A stretch of 64,000 bases of DNA from Actinomycetota bacterium (GCA_016870395.1 VGBT01000007.1:17268-81267), one strand, 5' to 3'; shown: positions 35,370-52,880, counted from the stretch's first letter. The notes: generated by a model from the sequence alone, not told the origin. Made by a program: numbers and translations.

Positions 35370-36620
35370 CTAGCCCGCGAGCGATCCGAAGAGGCGAACC
35401 CAGTCCTCGAGCTCGCGGGTCGATAGGAAGTTCTGCCGGACGTGCTCCTTGCCTGCCATACCCATCTCGTCGGCGCGGTCTGGGTTCGCGAGCAGCTCGA
35501 TCGTGCGTCGCGCGCACGACTCGACCGAGTCGACCAGGTAGCCGTCGAGGCCGTCGCGGATCTGGAGCTCGATGCCGCCGGCGCGACCGCCGATCACGGG
35601 CCGGCCCTTCCAGAGACCCTCCGCCACGGTGAGACCGAAGCCCTCCCGCAACGACTTCTGCACCACGACGTCGGCCGCCCGCTGGAACGCGTTGATCTGC
35701 ACGTTGCCGACCTGCTGGATGTTTGACAGCAGATGGATGTCGCGGTCCTGCCCGCGCGCCTCCTCGACTTGCTCCCAGACTCGGAAGCACTCGGGATCGT
35801 CAGTGGCCATCGAGCCCGCGAGCACGAGCTGGGCGTCGGGCACCTCGTCGCGCACGATGCGGAACGCCTCGATCACGCCGACCGGGTCCTTCCACGGGTC
35901 GTATCGGCTGACCTGGCACATGATCGGGCGTGTGGTGTCGATCCCGTACTGCTTGCAGATCTCGGTGACGAAGGGATCGTGGAGGTCGAGGTTCTTCACC
36001 GACAGCGGGTCGATGCACGGCGGTGCGACGACAACGCGCTCGGTGCCGAGCGATGCCGGGACGAACTCGGGCATCGTCCACACCGAGGCGTCATACTGTT
36101 CGACATGGGGAAGGAAGAACTCCCATATGTCTGCGCGCGCATCGGTGAGATCGATGTGACAGCGCCAGATCCAGTGGGTGCCCGGCCGGTTGACGCCCGA
36201 GTAGCCAACGAACGTGAGCAACGCGGCCGGCTGCGGGTCGTGGACGACCACGTAGTCCCAGCTGTCCTCGAGGAGCAGGGCGTTGTCGAGGACCTTCTCC
36301 AGGTACACCTTCTGCATGTCGTGGTTCCACGGCACGTCGGCGCCCTGCAGAGCGTTGTGCACCGCCTTCGTGACGGCGAAGAACTCGTCGCTGCCGTGGA
36401 TCACCTGCCACTCGGCCTCGATGCCCAAGCTGCGCAGGAGGGGCACATGGGTCGCCAGCAGCTCGGCGACGCCACCGCCGTAGGCCGTGGCGTTGACGTG
36501 CAAAATCCGGGCACCGCGCAGTGGCTCGGCCAGCGCGCGAATCCGCTCGACGGTGTCGGCGCCCGCGACCCCTTCGTAGTCGGCGAGGTCCTTCTCGAGC
36601 AGGGGGACGCGTTCGAGCAC
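35370..36620 (-). CDS. treT: Glycosyltransferring trehalose synthase (GT4)
   Basis: HVNATAYGGGVAELL, TKAVHNALQG, HDPQPA, WRCHID, SRYDPWKDP, EGFGLTVAEGLWK; GTG 36620 with GAGGA RBS. Confidence 0.9.
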   Translation of the reverse strand: MLERVPLLEKDLADYEGVAGADTVERIRALAEPLRGARILHVNATAYGGGVAELLATHVPLLRSLGIEAEWQVIHGSDEFFAVTKAVHNALQGADVPWNHDMQKVYLEKVLDNALLLEDSWDYVVVHDPQPAALLTFVGYSGVNRPGTHWIWRCHIDLTDARADIWEFFLPHVEQYDASVWTMPEFVPASLGTERVVVAPPCIDPLSVKNLDLHDPFVTEICKQYGIDTTRPIMCQVSRYDPWKDPVGVIEAFRIVRDEVPDAQLVLAGSMATDDPECFRVWEQVEEARGQDRDIHLLSNIQQVGNVQINAFQRAADVVVQKSLREGFGLTVAEGLWKGRPVIGGRAGGIELQIRDGLDGYLVDSVESCARRTIELLANPDRADEMGMAGKEHVRQNFLSTRELEDWVRLFGSLAG

Positions 36621-36678
36621 CTGGGACTTCCTCGGTCTGATCGGCGCGGGCCATGCCGAAGCGGTCAATCTATCGACC

Positions 36679-37779
36679 GTGATCGGCCGCGCTGTTGCCT
36701 GTCCTGACAAGTTTCGCTCCTCGTTGACCGCAGCCGAGGCCGCGGCCGCGATCGCCCGGGGCCTGCGAACGGCAGGCTTCTCCGAGGTCGTGGAGCTTCC
36801 CCTAGCCGACGGGGGCGAGGGAACGCTCGACGCACTGGTTGCCGCGAAGGGCGGTTCGCGCCGTACGACCAGGGTCGCCGGCCCGCTGGGCGACCCGGTC
36901 GACGCCGAGTGGGCCGTCCTGGCCGACGGCACCGGGGTCGTGGAGATGGCGCGGGCCAGCGGGCGTGCCCTCGTCACCGGAAGGCCCGATCCTCTCAAGG
37001 CCAGTACCCGTGGCACCGGGGAGCTGATCGCGGCTGCGGCTCGGGCGGGCGTACGGCGGATCGTCGTCGGGGTCGGCGGCAGCGCGACCACCGATGGTGG
37101 CCTCGCCGCGGTGGAGGCGCTCGGCTGGTCGCTCGCCGGACTCGACGTGGTGGTCGCGTGCGACGACGTCGGAACCGCGTTCACGGCCTCGGCCGAGGTC
37201 TACGGTCCGCAAAAGGGTGCCTCGGCCGCGCAGGTGGCTCTGCTGACGCGTCGCCTCGAGCAGCTTGCCGCGTTGTATCGCGACCGCACCGGCGTCGACG
37301 TGACGACGCTGGAGGGAGCCGGGGCCGCGGGCGGGCTTGCCGGTGGACTGGCTGCGATCGGCGCGCGTCTCGAGCCCGGCTTCGACGTCGTCGCACACGC
37401 CGCGGGTCTCGAGTTCGAGCTCGAAGGTGCTGAGCTCGTCGTCACCGGGGAGGGCAAGCTCGACGCGACCAGCTTCGCGGGCAAGGTGGCCGGCAGCGTG
37501 CTCGCATGGGCGAACGACCTCGGCGTGCCGCACCGAGCGGTCATCGCGGGCCAAGTCACCGAGGAGGGCCGCCAGGAGGCGCAGGCGTCCACCTCGGCCC
37601 AGGATGGAGCAGACGGGCGCCGGAGCCGACCATCGGAGGAAGCGAGCGTGCTGGGCGATGTGCTCGTTCTCGCGCTGACCGATCGCGTGTGGCAGGCGGG
37701 CGAAGCGTTTTCACGCGCCGCGACGCTCGTCGAGGAGTCGGCGATCGAGGCGGGCCGCCGCGCGCTGGGTCTCGACTGA
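36679..37779 (+). CDS. glxK: Glycerate kinase (GlxK family) carrying an in-frame 21-codon insertion
   Basis: CPDKFRSSL, PLADGGEGT, STRGTGEL, GGSATTDGG, GAGAAGGL, VTGEGKLD. Confidence 0.9.
   Translation: MIGRAVACPDKFRSSLTAAEAAAAIARGLRTAGFSEVVELPLADGGEGTLDALVAAKGGSRRTTRVAGPLGDPVDAEWAVLADGTGVVEMARASGRALVTGRPDPLKASTRGTGELIAAAARAGVRRIVVGVGGSATTDGGLAAVEALGWSLAGLDVVVACDDVGTAFTASAEVYGPQKGASAAQVALLTRRLEQLAALYRDRTGVDVTTLEGAGAAGGLAGGLAAIGARLEPGFDVVAHAAGLEFELEGAELVVTGEGKLDATSFAGKVAGSVLAWANDLGVPHRAVIAGQVTEEGRQEAQASTSAQDGADGRRSRPSEEASVLGDVLVLALTDRVWQAGEAFSRAATLVEESAIEAGRRALGLD
37572..37642 (+). repeat. Dispersed 63-bp hairpin element, copy 2 (inside glycerate kinase CDS)
   Basis: CCAGGAGGCGCAGGCGTC-(22 nt)-GACGGGCGCCGGAGCCGACCATCG then GAGGAAG; 24-nt exact match to 13063-13086. 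Confidence 0.8.
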
Positions 37780-37787
37780 AGCGAGGG

Positions 37788-38717
37788 CTACGCGCTGAGA
37801 CCGCGACCGGCGCGGTAGCCGGCGATGGTCGCGGCGGGTGGCCGCTCGCGGACCTCGATGGTCATCGCCTCGGGCTCGTAGCCCTCGGCGAAGCGGCGGA
37901 GCTCGGCGTGCTCGGCAGGGACGCGATCGAACCCGGCCCGTCGCAGCGCGGTGACGAGGATCGCGGTCGCTTGGGGACCCAGGTCTTCGAGCGGGCGGTT
38001 GCGGTGCTCGCGCACGCCGAGATCGACCTGCGCGGTAGCTCCGAGCCCGAAGCGCTCGACCACGTCGATCAGCATGCCGAGCTCCACGCCCCAACCCTCT
38101 ACGAACGGGACGGACTCGAGGACGTCGCGTCGTCCCGCGTACTCACCGGCGAGGGGCTGGACGAAGCGGACGAGCTGGGGGAACAGCACCGAGATCAGCG
38201 GTCGGGCCACCAGCTCGGTGACTCTCCCACCGCCGTGGGGCTCGGCGTGCAGCGGTCGCTCGTAGAAGCCCTTGACGAACCCGACCTCCGGCGCGGTCAG
38301 CAGTGGGCCGAGGAGCCCGGTGACGAAGTGCGGTCCGAAGTTGCGGATGTCGGCGTCGACCCAGCAGATCACCTCGCCTCGGGAGACGTGCAGCGACTTC
38401 CACATCGCGTTGCCCTTGCCGGAACCGGGCCCGGCCTCGGGGAGCACGTCGGCCTCGGCGAACACGCGGGCGCCCTCCCACGTGGCGACCTCGGCGGTGC
38501 TGTCGGTCGAGCCGTCGTCGATCACGACGACCTCGTCCACCAGGGGCACGGCCTCCATCAGGGTGCGGCGCACGGTCGCGACGATGTGCCCTACTGTGGC
38601 CTCCTCGTCCCGGGCGGGCAGGCACACCGACACCCGGGAACCCGTGCGGGCTTTCGCGGCGGCGAGGTGCTCCGGGTCGAAGGCGTCGTGGCGCCAGGGC
38701 ACGGGGAGGAGCTGCAC
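37788..38717 (-). CDS. gpgS: Glucosyl-3-phosphoglycerate synthase
   Basis: VCLPARDE, DDGSTD, GKGNAMWKSL, WVDAD, GGRVTELVARP, QPLAGEYAG, WGVELG, REHRNRPL; start taken at GTG 38717. Confidence 0.9.
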   Translation of the reverse strand: MQLLPVPWRHDAFDPEHLAAAKARTGSRVSVCLPARDEEATVGHIVATVRRTLMEAVPLVDEVVVIDDGSTDSTAEVATWEGARVFAEADVLPEAGPGSGKGNAMWKSLHVSRGEVICWVDADIRNFGPHFVTGLLGPLLTAPEVGFVKGFYERPLHAEPHGGGRVTELVARPLISVLFPQLVRFVQPLAGEYAGRRDVLESVPFVEGWGVELGMLIDVVERFGLGATAQVDLGVREHRNRPLEDLGPQATAILVTALRRAGFDRVPAEHAELRRFAEGYEPEAMTIEVRERPPAATIAGYRAGRGLSA

Positions 38718-38793
38718 GACCGGCCAGCGTAGGCGGCCCGCCGTTCCTGGTTCGCCCCGGTGGGCGGCGCGGCCTACACTGCTCGGCAACGCG

Positions 38794-38886
38794 CTCATCC
38801 AGAGCGGCCGAGGGACGGGCCCGACGACGCCGCGGCAACCAGCACTCCGGGTAACCGGGGCCAGGTGCCAATGCCCGAACGATGAG
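38794..38886 (+). ncRNA. SAM-I (S-box) riboswitch aptamer
   Basis: P1 CTCATC/GATGAG, ATCCAGAG, GAGGGACGGGCCC, CGGCAACC and GGTGCCAAT consensus blocks in order. Confidence 0.9.
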
Positions 38887-39023
38887 AGAGCCCCGCAGCG
38901 TGGGCCACCGGTCTCCGGTCCTCCGCTCGAGGCGCTCGACCAATGGCGAGCGCGCCGAGCAGGGCAGCCGTGGGCGACCACCCGGGAAGTGGTGGGCGAC
39001 CACCTGGACACAGGAGCACTGAC

Positions 39024-40262
39024 ATGGCCCATGTGGACTCGTTGCGGTGTCGGGAGTGCGGCCGTACCTACGACGTCGCGCCGATCTACACGTGTGAGTG
39101 GTGCTTCGGCCCGCTCGAGTGCGCGTACGACTACGACGCGATCGCCGGCGCGATCAGCCGCGAGAAGATCGCGGCGGGCCCGCCGAGCATCTGGCGGTAC
39201 GCCGATCTCCTGCCCGTCGACCGGAACCCGGCGGTCGATCTCGGTGCCGGGTACTCGCCACTCGTGCGCGCCGACCGGCTCGCCGCGGAGCTCGGCCTCG
39301 GTGAGGTCTGGATCAAGAACGACACGACCAACCCCACGAACTCGTTCAAGGACCGGGTCACCTCGGTGGCGCTCTCGAAGGCGCTCGAGTTCGGCTTCAA
39401 GGTGGCAGCCTGCGCGTCTACCGGCAACCTGGCCAACGCAGTCGCGGCGCACGCCGCGCACGCGGGTCTGCGCAGCTTCGTGTTCGTCCCGGCGAACCTC
39501 GAGGCCGGCAAGATCGTCACCACGGCGGTGTACGGCGGCAACGTCGTCGCGATCGACGGCAATTACGACGACGTGAACCGCCTGTGCGCTGAGCTCGCGG
39601 GCACCTATCCGTGGGCGTTCGTCAACGTGAACGTCCGTACGTACTACGCGGAGGGCTCCAAGACGCTCGCCTACGAGACCGCCGAGCAGCTGGGCTGGGA
39701 GGTCCCCGACCACGTCGTCGTTCCTGTTGCCAGCGGCTCGCTGCTCACCAAGATCCGCAAGGGCTTCGACGAGCTGCACAAAGTCGGCCTGCTCGATGCC
39801 GAGCCCGAGGTGCGGGTGAGCGGTGCACAGGCCCTGGGCTGCTCGCCGGTCGCGGGCGCGTGGCTCGAGCAGATTGACACGATCAAGCCGGTGAAGCCCG
39901 ACACGATCGCCAAGTCGCTCGCGATCGGGAACCCCGCCGACGGCTACTTCGCGCTCGACGCCGTCCGCCAGACGGGTGGGGGGTTCGCCGCGGTCACCGA
40001 CGACGAGGTCGTCGAGGCGATCAGGCTCCTCGCACGGACCGAGGGCATCTTCGCCGAGACGGCAGGGGGCGTGACGATCGCCACCCTCAAGCATCTCGCC
40101 GAGCAGGGGGTCGTGCGGTCCGACGAGCGCGTGGTCGCGTACGTCACCGGCCACGGACTCAAGACGCTCGACGCCGTCCAGGACGTGGTCGGCCCGACCG
40201 CGACCATCGCCCCCAACCTCGACGCGTTTCACGCGGCGTTCGACCGGGAGGACCTCGCCTGA
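39024..40262 (+). CDS. thrC: Threonine synthase-like PLP enzyme with N-terminal Zn ribbon
   Basis: CRECG..CEWC, NPTNSFKDR PLP lysine, ASTGNLA, EGSKT, SLAIGNPADG, VTGHGLK; exact function may differ (see findings). Confidence 0.88.
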   Translation: MAHVDSLRCRECGRTYDVAPIYTCEWCFGPLECAYDYDAIAGAISREKIAAGPPSIWRYADLLPVDRNPAVDLGAGYSPLVRADRLAAELGLGEVWIKNDTTNPTNSFKDRVTSVALSKALEFGFKVAACASTGNLANAVAAHAAHAGLRSFVFVPANLEAGKIVTTAVYGGNVVAIDGNYDDVNRLCAELAGTYPWAFVNVNVRTYYAEGSKTLAYETAEQLGWEVPDHVVVPVASGSLLTKIRKGFDELHKVGLLDAEPEVRVSGAQALGCSPVAGAWLEQIDTIKPVKPDTIAKSLAIGNPADGYFALDAVRQTGGGFAAVTDDEVVEAIRLLARTEGIFAETAGGVTIATLKHLAEQGVVRSDERVVAYVTGHGLKTLDAVQDVVGPTATIAPNLDAFHAAFDREDLA

Positions 40263-40537
40263 TGGGCGTGATCGTTCGCATCCCCACTCAGCTGCGCGAG
40301 CTCTCGGCCGGCGCCGCGGAGATCACCCTGCCAGCAGGCACCGTCGCCGAGCTGCTGGCGGCCCTCGACGCCGCGCACCCCGGCTTCGCGGAGCGCCTCC
40401 ACGACGGCGACGGCCAGCTCCGGCGCTTCGTCAACGTCTTCGTCGCCGACGAGGACATCCGCTTCCTCGACGGGCTCGAGACGCCGGTGGCGGACGGGCA
40501 GGTCGTGAGCATCATCCCCGCCGTCGCCGGGGGCTGA
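40262..40537 (+). CDS. MoaD/ThiS family sulfur carrier protein
   Basis: VRIPTQLR, RRFVNVFV, C-terminal IIPAVAGG diglycine; TGATG-coupled. Confidence 0.92.
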   Translation: MGVIVRIPTQLRELSAGAAEITLPAGTVAELLAALDAAHPGFAERLHDGDGQLRRFVNVFVADEDIRFLDGLETPVADGQVVSIIPAVAGG

Positions 40538-51828: not shown

Positions 51829-52620
51829 ATGCCGTTCGAGCCAGTCGTGCCGTCCCTGGGCTGGGGGGTGCTCCACCTCTTCTGCCGGGTCGATCGGGAG
51901 CGTGCGGATCGCGAACCGGGGGCTGCGAAGCGAGTGCTGGACGCGATTGCCTCACTCGAGGCCGACGACCACCAGGTCTTGCTCTTCGCCGTCCTGGGGC
52001 ACAAGGCGGATCTGGGCGTCATGGCGCTGGGTCCCGACCTTGCACGCCTCCAGGCGTTCCAGGTCGAGCTGCTCAGCGCGCCGTTCGTCGTCGAGTGGTC
52101 GTACCTGTCGCTCACCGAGGCATCCGAGTACGTGTCGACCGAAGAAGACGAGCGCGCGCGCCTGCGCGACGAGGAGGGCATCCTCGAGCCGGCCGAGATC
52201 GACGCACGGATCGTGGCGTGGAACGAGCGGATGGCGCACTACCGGGAGCAGCGCCTGCACCCGAGGCTGCCGTTGAAGCGCGCCATCTGCTTCTACCCGA
52301 TGTCGAAGCGTCGGACTGGTGACGACAACTGGTACTCGCTGCCGTTCGAGGAGCGGAAGCGGCTGATGGGCGGCCACGCCCGAGTCGGGCGCGGCTACGC
52401 GGGGCGGGTTCTGCAGCTGATCACGGGCTCCACCGGCATCGACGACTGGGAGTGGGGCGTCACCTTGCTCGCGGACGACCCGGTTGCGCTCAAGGAGATC
52501 GTCTACGAGATGCGCTTCGACGAGGTGTCGGCGCGCTACGCGGCATTCGGCCCGTTCGTCACGGGGCTCCTGGGTGAGCCGGCCGACGTGCTGGCGCGAA
52601 TCGGGATCGTGCGCCAATGA
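51829..52620 (+). CDS. chdC: Coproheme decarboxylase (chlorite dismutase family)
   Basis: YLSLTEASEY, CFYPMSK, WYSLPFEER, proximal His in GGHARVG, GSTGIDDWEWGV. Confidence 0.85.
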   Translation: MPFEPVVPSLGWGVLHLFCRVDRERADREPGAAKRVLDAIASLEADDHQVLLFAVLGHKADLGVMALGPDLARLQAFQVELLSAPFVVEWSYLSLTEASEYVSTEEDERARLRDEEGILEPAEIDARIVAWNERMAHYREQRLHPRLPLKRAICFYPMSKRRTGDDNWYSLPFEERKRLMGGHARVGRGYAGRVLQLITGSTGIDDWEWGVTLLADDPVALKEIVYEMRFDEVSARYAAFGPFVTGLLGEPADVLARIGIVRQ

Positions 52621-52880
52621 TCGATGACCCCAACGCGGCGACGAGCGTTCGACTGCACGTGTCGTTCCCCGAGGAGTTGGTGGACCGTCCGATGGTCTAC
52701 GAGATGGTGAAGGCCTACGACGTCGTGCCCAACATCCGTCGGGCGAACGTGGAGGCGCACTCCGGGTGGATCATCCTCGAGCTCGCCGGCGAGCGCGCCC
52801 AGCTCGACGCCGCGATCGCCTACCTCCAAGATGTCGGCTGCACTGTCAACACGATGGAGGGCGACGTCCTGGAAGGATGA
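52617..52880 (+). CDS. Stand-alone NIL domain protein
   Basis: L.FP..LV..PMVYEM...DVVPNIRRANV..GWIILEL.G..AI.YL pattern; ATGA-coupled to chdC. Confidence 0.75.
   Translation: MIDDPNAATSVRLHVSFPEELVDRPMVYEMVKAYDVVPNIRRANVEAHSGWIILELAGERAQLDAAIAYLQDVGCTVNTMEGDVLEG

Follow-up and report, generated by a model that had tools for sequence, protein, structure and literature searches.

The gene pair at positions 39024 to 40537 of the window, the 64,000-nucleotide stretch of DNA analyzed here, most probably forms a two-gene metM-metO operon for homocysteine synthesis that is shut off by SAM; from sequence comparisons, we put the probability of this reading at about 0.87. An initial annotation had described a SAM-I aptamer followed by a threonine-synthase-like gene and a coupled MoaD-like protein ending in GG, and model matches recover all three elements in their places. 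It had also proposed a methionine route from O-phosphohomoserine and a carrier protein, not threonine synthesis, and several lines of evidence argue for that proposal: a separate thrC gene in the same genome, the placement of the enzyme in a clade of its own, a conserved carrier and riboswitch, and the presence of helper genes. The metM-metO biology is itself already known, having been published in 2024 and included in GapMind 2026 (PMC13759103), and the value of the find lies in correct annotation and not in discovery.

The SAM-controlled unit and its leader

The host genome of the window is 3.0 Mb in size, has a GC content of 71%, and is 98.9% complete, and its closest relatives are named Acidimicrobiia MAGs. 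The features of the locus are as follows.

About 37788-38720, minus strand: glucosyl-3-phosphoglycerate synthase (GpgS), divergent, flanking gene upstream of the riboswitch
38792-38888, plus strand: SAM-I riboswitch aptamer with P1, P2, and P3 and without P4 (RF00162, 66.2 bits; gathering score, 44.4; E = 3e-13)
38889-39023, plus strand: leader and putative expression platform, with a predicted anti-SD strand (38900-38917), a conserved hairpin (38925-38959), and the Shine-Dalgarno sequence AGGAG (39012-39016)
39024-40262, plus strand: metM-like gene for a zinc-ribbon ThrC-family PLP enzyme of 412 aa, a predicted MetO-thiocarboxylate-dependent homocysteine synthase (TIGR00260, separate clade)
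40262-40537, plus strand: metO-like gene for a 91-aa ThiS/MoaD-fold sulfur-carrier protein ending in GG (PF02597, 56 bits)
Downstream of the metO-like gene: DtxR-like repressor, convergent, flanking gene

Because the flanking genes have no relation to methionine, the SAM-controlled unit is taken to consist of the riboswitch and the two genes behind it. The metM-like gene is thus found in the order GpgS, riboswitch, metM, metO, and DtxR, and not in a hom-thrC(-thrB) context. The same three-part arrangement of riboswitch, enzyme, and carrier recurs in dozens of independent loci, which places the layout far beyond chance.

The aptamer is one of two SAM-I matches in the whole 3.0-Mb genome, as found by an Rfam RF00162 scan, and its helices P1 to P3 are conserved in seven close relatives according to alignment and alifold. 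Helix P4 was sought between P3 and the 3' strand of P1 and is absent, with the model's P4 positions deleted in the alignment; it is also missing from the aptamers of close and compact relatives. Assignment of the aptamer to the SAM-IV (RF00634) or SAM-I/IV (RF01725) class was rejected, since neither model gave a match in the metM leader at a threshold as loose as E ≤ 10.

A search of the metM leader for an intrinsic terminator was negative, and an expression platform of that type was therefore rejected. ViennaRNA predicts that GGAG (39013-39016) pairs with CUCC (38913-38916) and that the AUG region pairs with 38905-38907, and the predicted probability that the SD of the metM-like gene is unpaired is about 0. 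The hairpin at 38925-38959, CGCUCGAGGCGCUCG...GAGCGCG(U/C)CGAG, is kept in 7/7 close relatives, and the GCGCUC of the P1 5' strand recurs in its 5' arm. The linker after P1 is longer in the window and its nearest relatives than in the compact relatives, in which the P1 3' strand (GAUGA) leads directly into the SD GAGGAGGA and then the AUG. Since GAUGA abuts these elements, closure of P1 in the compact relatives would occlude the ribosome site. Taken together, the folding and the compact relatives suggest that SAM control of metM-metO is a translational OFF switch: at high SAM levels, the aptamer would close P1 and a leader helix would hold the ribosome-binding site and the AUG, such that translation would be blocked. 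The folding energy of the leader is weakly better than that of shuffled sequence (z = -1.45), and the expression platform proposed for the window thus stays a model.

The second SAM-I riboswitch of the genome, on contig C22, has the same GAUGAGGAGGACCGAUG design at its end. It precedes a gene for an orphan protein of 184 aa with conserved CxxC...CxxC and PLGRHS motifs, which is unmatched in Pfam and NCBIfam and has only three close homologues among 5.8 billion proteins. Distant homologues are found in 8 of 200 Acidimicrobiia genomes, four of them with a SAM-I riboswitch upstream. The AlphaFold model of the orphan protein is confident (pLDDT 85, pTM 0.83); no fold relatives were found by Foldseek against the PDB (best E, 1.6) or by a wide VIA-align search (best Z, 4.1), and all matches against the Atlas were below 0.9.

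The enzyme, its carrier, and their distribution

The open reading frame at 38943-40262 (plus strand) belongs to the PALP/ThrC family (TIGR00260, 288.7 bits against a cut-off of 167.1; PF00291, 242 bits), and NF006050, the best named model for its product, scores 296.7 bits, slightly below the cut-off of 303. Translation most likely begins at the ATG at 39024, behind the AGGAG at 39012-39016, which gives a protein of 412 aa. The ATG at 38943 was rejected as a start because it sits in the loop of the conserved hairpin, inside an 8-nt insertion specific to the window, and because homologues with 82 to 90% identity are 411 to 413 aa long. The N terminus of the protein carries a zinc ribbon (CxxC...CxxC). 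Residues 56 to 401 match PDB 2ZSJ, the ThrC of Aquifex (E = 4.5e-63), which is the nearest of the solved structures; no zinc-ribbon MetM-type protein was found among them. Memberships in the cysteate synthase, threonine dehydratase, and CysM families were rejected on the basis of scores far under the cut-offs (for cysteate synthase, TIGR03844, 82.7 bits against 324.9).

The protein is 55 to 62% identical to homologues from the class Actinomycetes (Nonomuraea, Frankiaceae, and Micromonosporaceae) and 57 to 61% identical to those from cyanobacteria. In the databases, this gene and all of the relatives found are named “threonine synthase.” As a result of this naming, metabolic reconstructions of Acidimicrobiia and many other phyla would overlook a route to methionine and arrive at wrong numbers of threonine synthases.

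A phylogeny against true ThrC, which had been suggested as a check on the initial annotation, sets the enzyme apart. In the maximum-likelihood tree, canonical ThrC proteins (SH-aLRT 96) and zinc-ribbon proteins (SH-aLRT 99) form separate clades, and the window's protein is placed in an Actinomycetota subclade (support, 95) with proteins from Frankiaceae and Micromonosporaceae. A comparison of 6 canonical ThrCs with 79 MetM-like sequences revealed 25 alignment positions that are fixed in both groups yet different between them, the MetM-like states being 96 to 100% conserved. The clade-wide changes include STGNT to STGNL136 (T118 to L136), ThrC R190 to Y208, a new R205, and R272 to A300. The MetM-like clade has N-x-N203-x-R205-x-x-Y208 in place of the ThrC motif N-S-x-N-x-x-R and ASGSL in place of GNAGN; it has kept the PLP lysine (K109) and the S-T-G-N loop. 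Judged as a functional ThrC, the window's protein passes on its HMM score, but ThrC-invariant residues are replaced and the hom-thrC(-thrB) context is absent. These clade-wide changes fit an altered reaction, although the substrate is not readable from them alone. Several of the residues that differ are ones that we take to bind phosphate in ThrC, and the leaving group is thus uncertain from sequence.

The ATG of the metO-like gene overlaps the stop codon of the metM-like gene as TGATG, and a ribosome site (GGGAGGA) lies upstream. Its product belongs to the ThiS/MoaD family and has the C terminus ...PAVAGG. It is 47% identical to the CysO protein of the same genome and 42 to 78% identical to carriers adjoining MetM-like genes elsewhere, and the metM-linked carriers of other phyla are consistently nearer to it than to CysO. 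The best NCBIfam match of the metO-like protein is SAMP1 (54.7 bits, under the cut-off of 60).

A locus scan with one genome per species and a 9-sequence alignment as the query found 80 loci at 56 to 85% identity. The loci span six phyla: Actinomycetota (Acidimicrobiia and others), Cyanobacteriota, Chloroflexota, Nitrospirota, Aquificota, and Verrucomicrobiota. A gene for a MetO-like GG carrier is found directly 3' of the MetM-like gene in 70 of the 80 loci; some of the MetO-like carriers in this set end with a short tail past the GG and would need JAMM processing. A SAM-I riboswitch directly precedes the MetM-like gene in half of the loci (40/80), which include 28 of the 29 Acidimicrobiia-type loci and 12 from Chloroflexota, Frankiaceae, Miltoncostaeaceae, Verrucomicrobiota, and an unclassified Actinomycetota MAG. 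None of the cyanobacterial loci among the 80 has a SAM-I riboswitch upstream. Riboswitch, enzyme (55% identity), and carrier also follow one another in this order in Nonomuraea gerenzanensis, a cultured actinomycete. Furthermore, canonical ThrC co-occurs with the MetM-like gene in 5/5 genomes tested behind these loci.

Among 201 sampled Acidimicrobiia genomes, the MetM-like gene (E ≤ 1e-100) was found in 58, being nearly universal in the order to which the window belongs, and MetX was found in 130. Hand comparison of the two lists indicates that MetX is also present in 28 of the 58 MetM-bearing genomes and was not found in 30, counts that are descriptive only, since the search covered MetX alone and related genomes do not count as independent. 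MetM/MetO may thus be the main homocysteine route in the latter group. In the family to which the window belongs, the MetM-like gene and MetX occur together in all six members.

The only NIL-domain gene in the genome is also found in the window (52617-52880), 12 kb from the operon, where it encodes a protein of 87 aa and is coupled behind a HemQ-like gene. In 11 of the 80 loci, each belonging to Chloroflexota or Nitrospirota, metM/metO is adjoined by a NIL gene whose product is homologous to this protein. No NIL gene was found within 3 kb of metM/metO among the Acidimicrobiia loci of the 80.

Pathway genes and alternative readings

A search of the genome for a second thrC, which the initial annotation had called for, found the canonical gene (325 bits) on another contig (C2), in an argS-lysA-hom-thrC cluster of the kind that is classical for actinobacteria, close to rho and a HomK-like gene. 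The usual thrB slot near rho holds a cofactor-independent phosphoglycerate mutase-like protein. This HomK-like protein scores 404 bits against TIGR02535 (“proposed homoserine kinase”), under the cut-off of 446, and no GHMP ThrB (TIGR00191) was found in the genome. The HomK/ThrB2 family has been validated in Bacteroides and predicted for one Microtrichaceae genome (GapMind 2026, PMC13759103), which makes it a plausible source of O-phosphohomoserine.

The expectation that metA and metX-metB would be absent held only in part. No metA was found in the genome, but metX is present and adjoins metY on a separate contig, unlinked to metM-metO. No riboswitch was found upstream of metY-metX at E ≤ 1. 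Since metX and metY are present, MetM/MetO would be an additional, SAM-gated route and not a replacement, and methionine prototrophy could be explained without it. The genome also has a mec(JAMM)-cysO-cysM cluster, which contains its one Prok-JAB gene, and a single copy of a ThiF-family enzyme with an N-terminal rhodanese domain (NF006444, 560 bits). MetH is present; MetE was sought in the genome and not found.

Homology and the published system together suggest that the C-terminal Gly-Gly of MetO would be adenylated and then thiocarboxylated by the single rhodanese-ThiF enzyme. By analogy with the published work on S. albulus, MetM (PLP, ThrC fold) would remove phosphate from O-phosphohomoserine and add the MetO thiocarboxylate at the gamma carbon, the substrate probably being supplied by the HomK-type (TIGR02535) enzyme in the thrB slot beside hom-thrC. 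Homocysteine would then be set free, the Mec-type JAMM hydrolase being at hand for any forms that are tailed or still bound to the carrier, and MetH would methylate it to methionine. When SAM is scarce, metM-metO would be expressed alongside the metX-metY route, which has no recognisable riboswitch. A wider scheme for the Acidimicrobiia lineage can also be drawn, but as a whole it is doubtful. In that scheme, MetM/MetO would be the sole SAM-gated homocysteine route and an inducible thiocarboxylate back-up beside a riboswitch-free MetX/MetY; it would be fed by HomK in place of ThrB, the stand-alone NIL protein (52617-52880) would act as a third regulatory partner, and the P4-less aptamer with its post-P1 hairpin would be a distinct translational platform.

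The metM-like gene could instead encode a second genuine threonine synthase, of the archaeal type with a zinc ribbon, next to a carrier that is functionally unrelated. The TIGR00260 score and the uniform database naming agree with this, as do the retained PLP lysine and S-T-G-N loop and the weak threonine synthase and deaminase activities of a cyanobacterial clade member in vitro (PMC12172450). However, a housekeeping thrC is already present in the hom-thrC cluster, and shutting off a threonine synthase with SAM makes no regulatory sense. The translational coupling of the carrier, its downstream position in 70/80 loci across phyla, and the 25 positions fixed differently from canonical ThrC also count against a second threonine synthase, which we regard as very improbable.

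It is likewise improbable that the pair makes a different sulfur compound, such as cysteine from O-phosphoserine by CysM/CysO-type chemistry with a ThrC fold, or that its substrate is a differently activated homoserine such as O-acetylhomoserine. Certain cysteine genes of other bacteria are under the control of SAM riboswitches, and the 47% identity between MetO and the CysO of the genome points in the same direction; the altered positions presumed to bind phosphate in ThrC leave the leaving group uncertain, and the enzyme weakly resembles cysteate synthase. This last score is far under the TIGR03844 cut-off, however, and a complete mec-cysO-cysM cluster is found elsewhere in the genome. The biochemistry published for the family leads from O-phospho-L-homoserine to homocysteine (PMC13759103; bioRxiv 10.64898/2026.09.15.751699). 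Finally, the small protein might act mainly as a ubiquitin-like modifier of the SAMP type and not as a sulfur donor, with the enzyme having another partner. SAMP1 is its best NCBIfam match, and an E1-like enzyme and a JAMM protease are each encoded once in the genome, but the SAMP1 score is under the cut-off, no conjugation machinery is found near the locus, and its coupling to a riboswitch-controlled PLP enzyme is in keeping with sulfur transfer, so that a role as a modifier is scarcely credible.

Comparison with known systems

In Mycobacterium tuberculosis, the CysM/CysO/Mec/MoeZ system makes cysteine from O-phosphoserine and CysO-thiocarboxylate. The predicted metM-metO route follows the same logic, in that a PLP enzyme would use a hydroxy-amino acid in phosphorylated form together with a protein thiocarboxylate. 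However, the window's enzyme belongs to the ThrC subfamily with a zinc ribbon and not to CysK/CysM, and it is placed under SAM riboswitch control. Its predicted substrate is one carbon longer, and its predicted product is homocysteine. The HcyS/HcyD/HcyF-MetY system of Wolinella succinogenes uses a protein thiocarboxylate together with O-acetylhomoserine. A ThiS-like thiocarboxylate thus brings the homocysteine sulfur in that system, as is predicted here, but the Wolinella enzyme is of the MetY type (Cys_Met_Meta_PP fold), whereas that of the window is ThrC-folded and is not linked to the MetY of the genome.

With canonical ThrC (TIGR00260; PDB 2ZSJ, 1UIM, and 2D1F), the window's enzyme shares the PLP fold, the Schiff-base lysine, and the S-T-G-N loop. 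It differs in having a zinc ribbon of some 50 residues added at the N terminus, and its gene lies outside the hom-thrC cluster, under SAM control, and coupled to a sulfur carrier.

The closest system is the Streptomyces MetM/MetO route. The initial annotation had named this route, and it does exist in the literature, being credited to Hasebe et al. 2024 (AEM 90:e0124724) in PMC13759103, PMC12172450, and bioRxiv 10.64898/2026.09.15.751699. GapMind 2026 (PMC13759103) counts four Streptomyces proteins as experimentally supported, namely MetO, MetM (“MetO-thiocarboxylate-dependent homocysteine synthase”), Mec, and MoeZ, and the route proceeds via O-phospho-L-homoserine according to a 2026 preprint (bioRxiv 10.64898/2026.09.15.751699). 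In Microcystis, a homologue shares 51.6% identity with S. albulus MetM, and the product of the neighbouring gene is 47% similar to MetO (PMC12172450). This homologue had weak threonine synthase and deaminase activities in vitro and no clear MetM function in vivo (PMC12172450), which suggests that not every member of the clade need be a dedicated homocysteine synthase.

Several features set the window's gene pair apart from S. albulus MetM (UniProt A0A059WBP2) and MetO (A0A059W7F4). The window's lineage is Acidimicrobiia and not Streptomyces, and its genome also has metX-metY. The E1 enzyme of this genome has an N-terminal rhodanese domain (NF006444 type), whereas that of MoeZ is C-terminal; O-phosphohomoserine would probably come from a HomK-type enzyme and not from ThrB, and the window's aptamer is without P4. 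Common to both are a ThrC-family enzyme apart from the housekeeping ThrC, with an adjoining GG-ended ThiS/MoaD carrier, and an E1-plus-rhodanese activator and a JAMM hydrolase encoded elsewhere. A SAM riboswitch is found upstream in both as well, since one precedes S. albulus metM (PMC12172450). Clade membership, synteny, and the identities quoted in the papers point, indirectly, to a putative orthology between the window's gene pair and S. albulus MetM/MetO.

SAM-I leaders of metM and of an orphan protein gene

Helix P4 of the SAM-I fold is absent from every Acidimicrobiia-type metM leader examined, including that of the window (38792-38959) and those of the extracted loci L029 to L056. In the nearest relatives of the window, the leader also carries an extra, sequence-conserved hairpin 3' of P1 (window 38925-38959), and the GCGCUC found in the 5' strand of P1 recurs in the 5' arm of this hairpin. 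In relatives further away the leader is compact, and the SD sequence GAGGAGGA abuts P1.

The genome has a second SAM-I riboswitch, outside the window on contig C22, which likewise lacks P4 and has the 3' end ...GCGAUGAGGAGGACCGAUG.

C22:30909-31557 (L026:5907-6558), minus strand: second SAM-I riboswitch and the gene for P0416

P0416, encoded behind this riboswitch, is an orphan protein of 184 aa with conserved D41, CxxC...CxxC, and P-L-G-R-H-S motifs. It had no matches in Pfam or NCBIfam, and a search of 5.8 billion proteins turned up only 3 close homologues. More remote ones are present in 8 of 200 Acidimicrobiia genomes, and in 4 of these 8 a SAM-I riboswitch also precedes the gene. The structure predicted by AF2 has high confidence (pLDDT 85, pTM 0.83), and comparison with the PDB found no fold relative (lowest E with Foldseek, 1.6; highest Z with VIA, 4.1). 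P0416 represents a SAM-regulated protein family without assigned function.

Two other RNA-model matches fell within related loci. In a locus from Chloroflexi, metM-metO is closely followed on its 3' side by a T-box leader (L077:4705-5131; 104 bits). A PYLIS_3 match in locus L100 scored barely over the threshold and is probably a chance hit.

Distribution of MetM and genes around the metM locus

In 201 Acidimicrobiia genomes sampled at class level, the occurrence of MetM-like genes and of MetX is a patchwork. MetX is also present in 28 of the 58 MetM-bearing genomes and absent from the remaining 30, and several small-genome families lack a MetM-like gene and, in part, MetX as well.

The only NIL-domain gene of the genome lies 12 kb downstream of metO, sharing 4 nt with the stop region of the gene before it.

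51829-52620, plus strand: chlorite-dismutase/HemQ-family gene, directly upstream of the NIL gene
52617-52880, plus strand: stand-alone NIL-domain (PF09383) gene, 87 aa

Among the 80 related loci, homologues of this NIL protein adjoin metM/metO in 11, from Chloroflexota and Nitrospirota, and in none of the Acidimicrobiia loci.

Upstream of metM, two ORFs, both with a GC3 typical of coding sequence, share about 500 nt.

35370-37184, minus strand: long TreT-like trehalose synthase ORF
36679-37779, plus strand: long ORF overlapping the TreT-like ORF

Homology of the TreT-like ORF begins no earlier than residue 197, and its first 196 (N-terminal) codons are probably not translated.

A HomK-like gene in the thrB slot

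On contig C2, the thrB slot of an argS-lysA-hom-thrC...rho cluster is occupied by a gene whose product resembles cofactor-independent phosphoglycerate mutase.

C2, L014:3836-5011, minus strand: HomK-like gene, near hom-thrC and rho

The protein scores 404 bits against TIGR02535/HomK, under the cut-off of 446, and a genome-wide search for a GHMP homoserine kinase (TIGR00191) found none. HomK has been predicted for a Microtrichaceae genome (PMC13759103); the findings on the thrB slot and on GHMP kinases are in agreement with that prediction.
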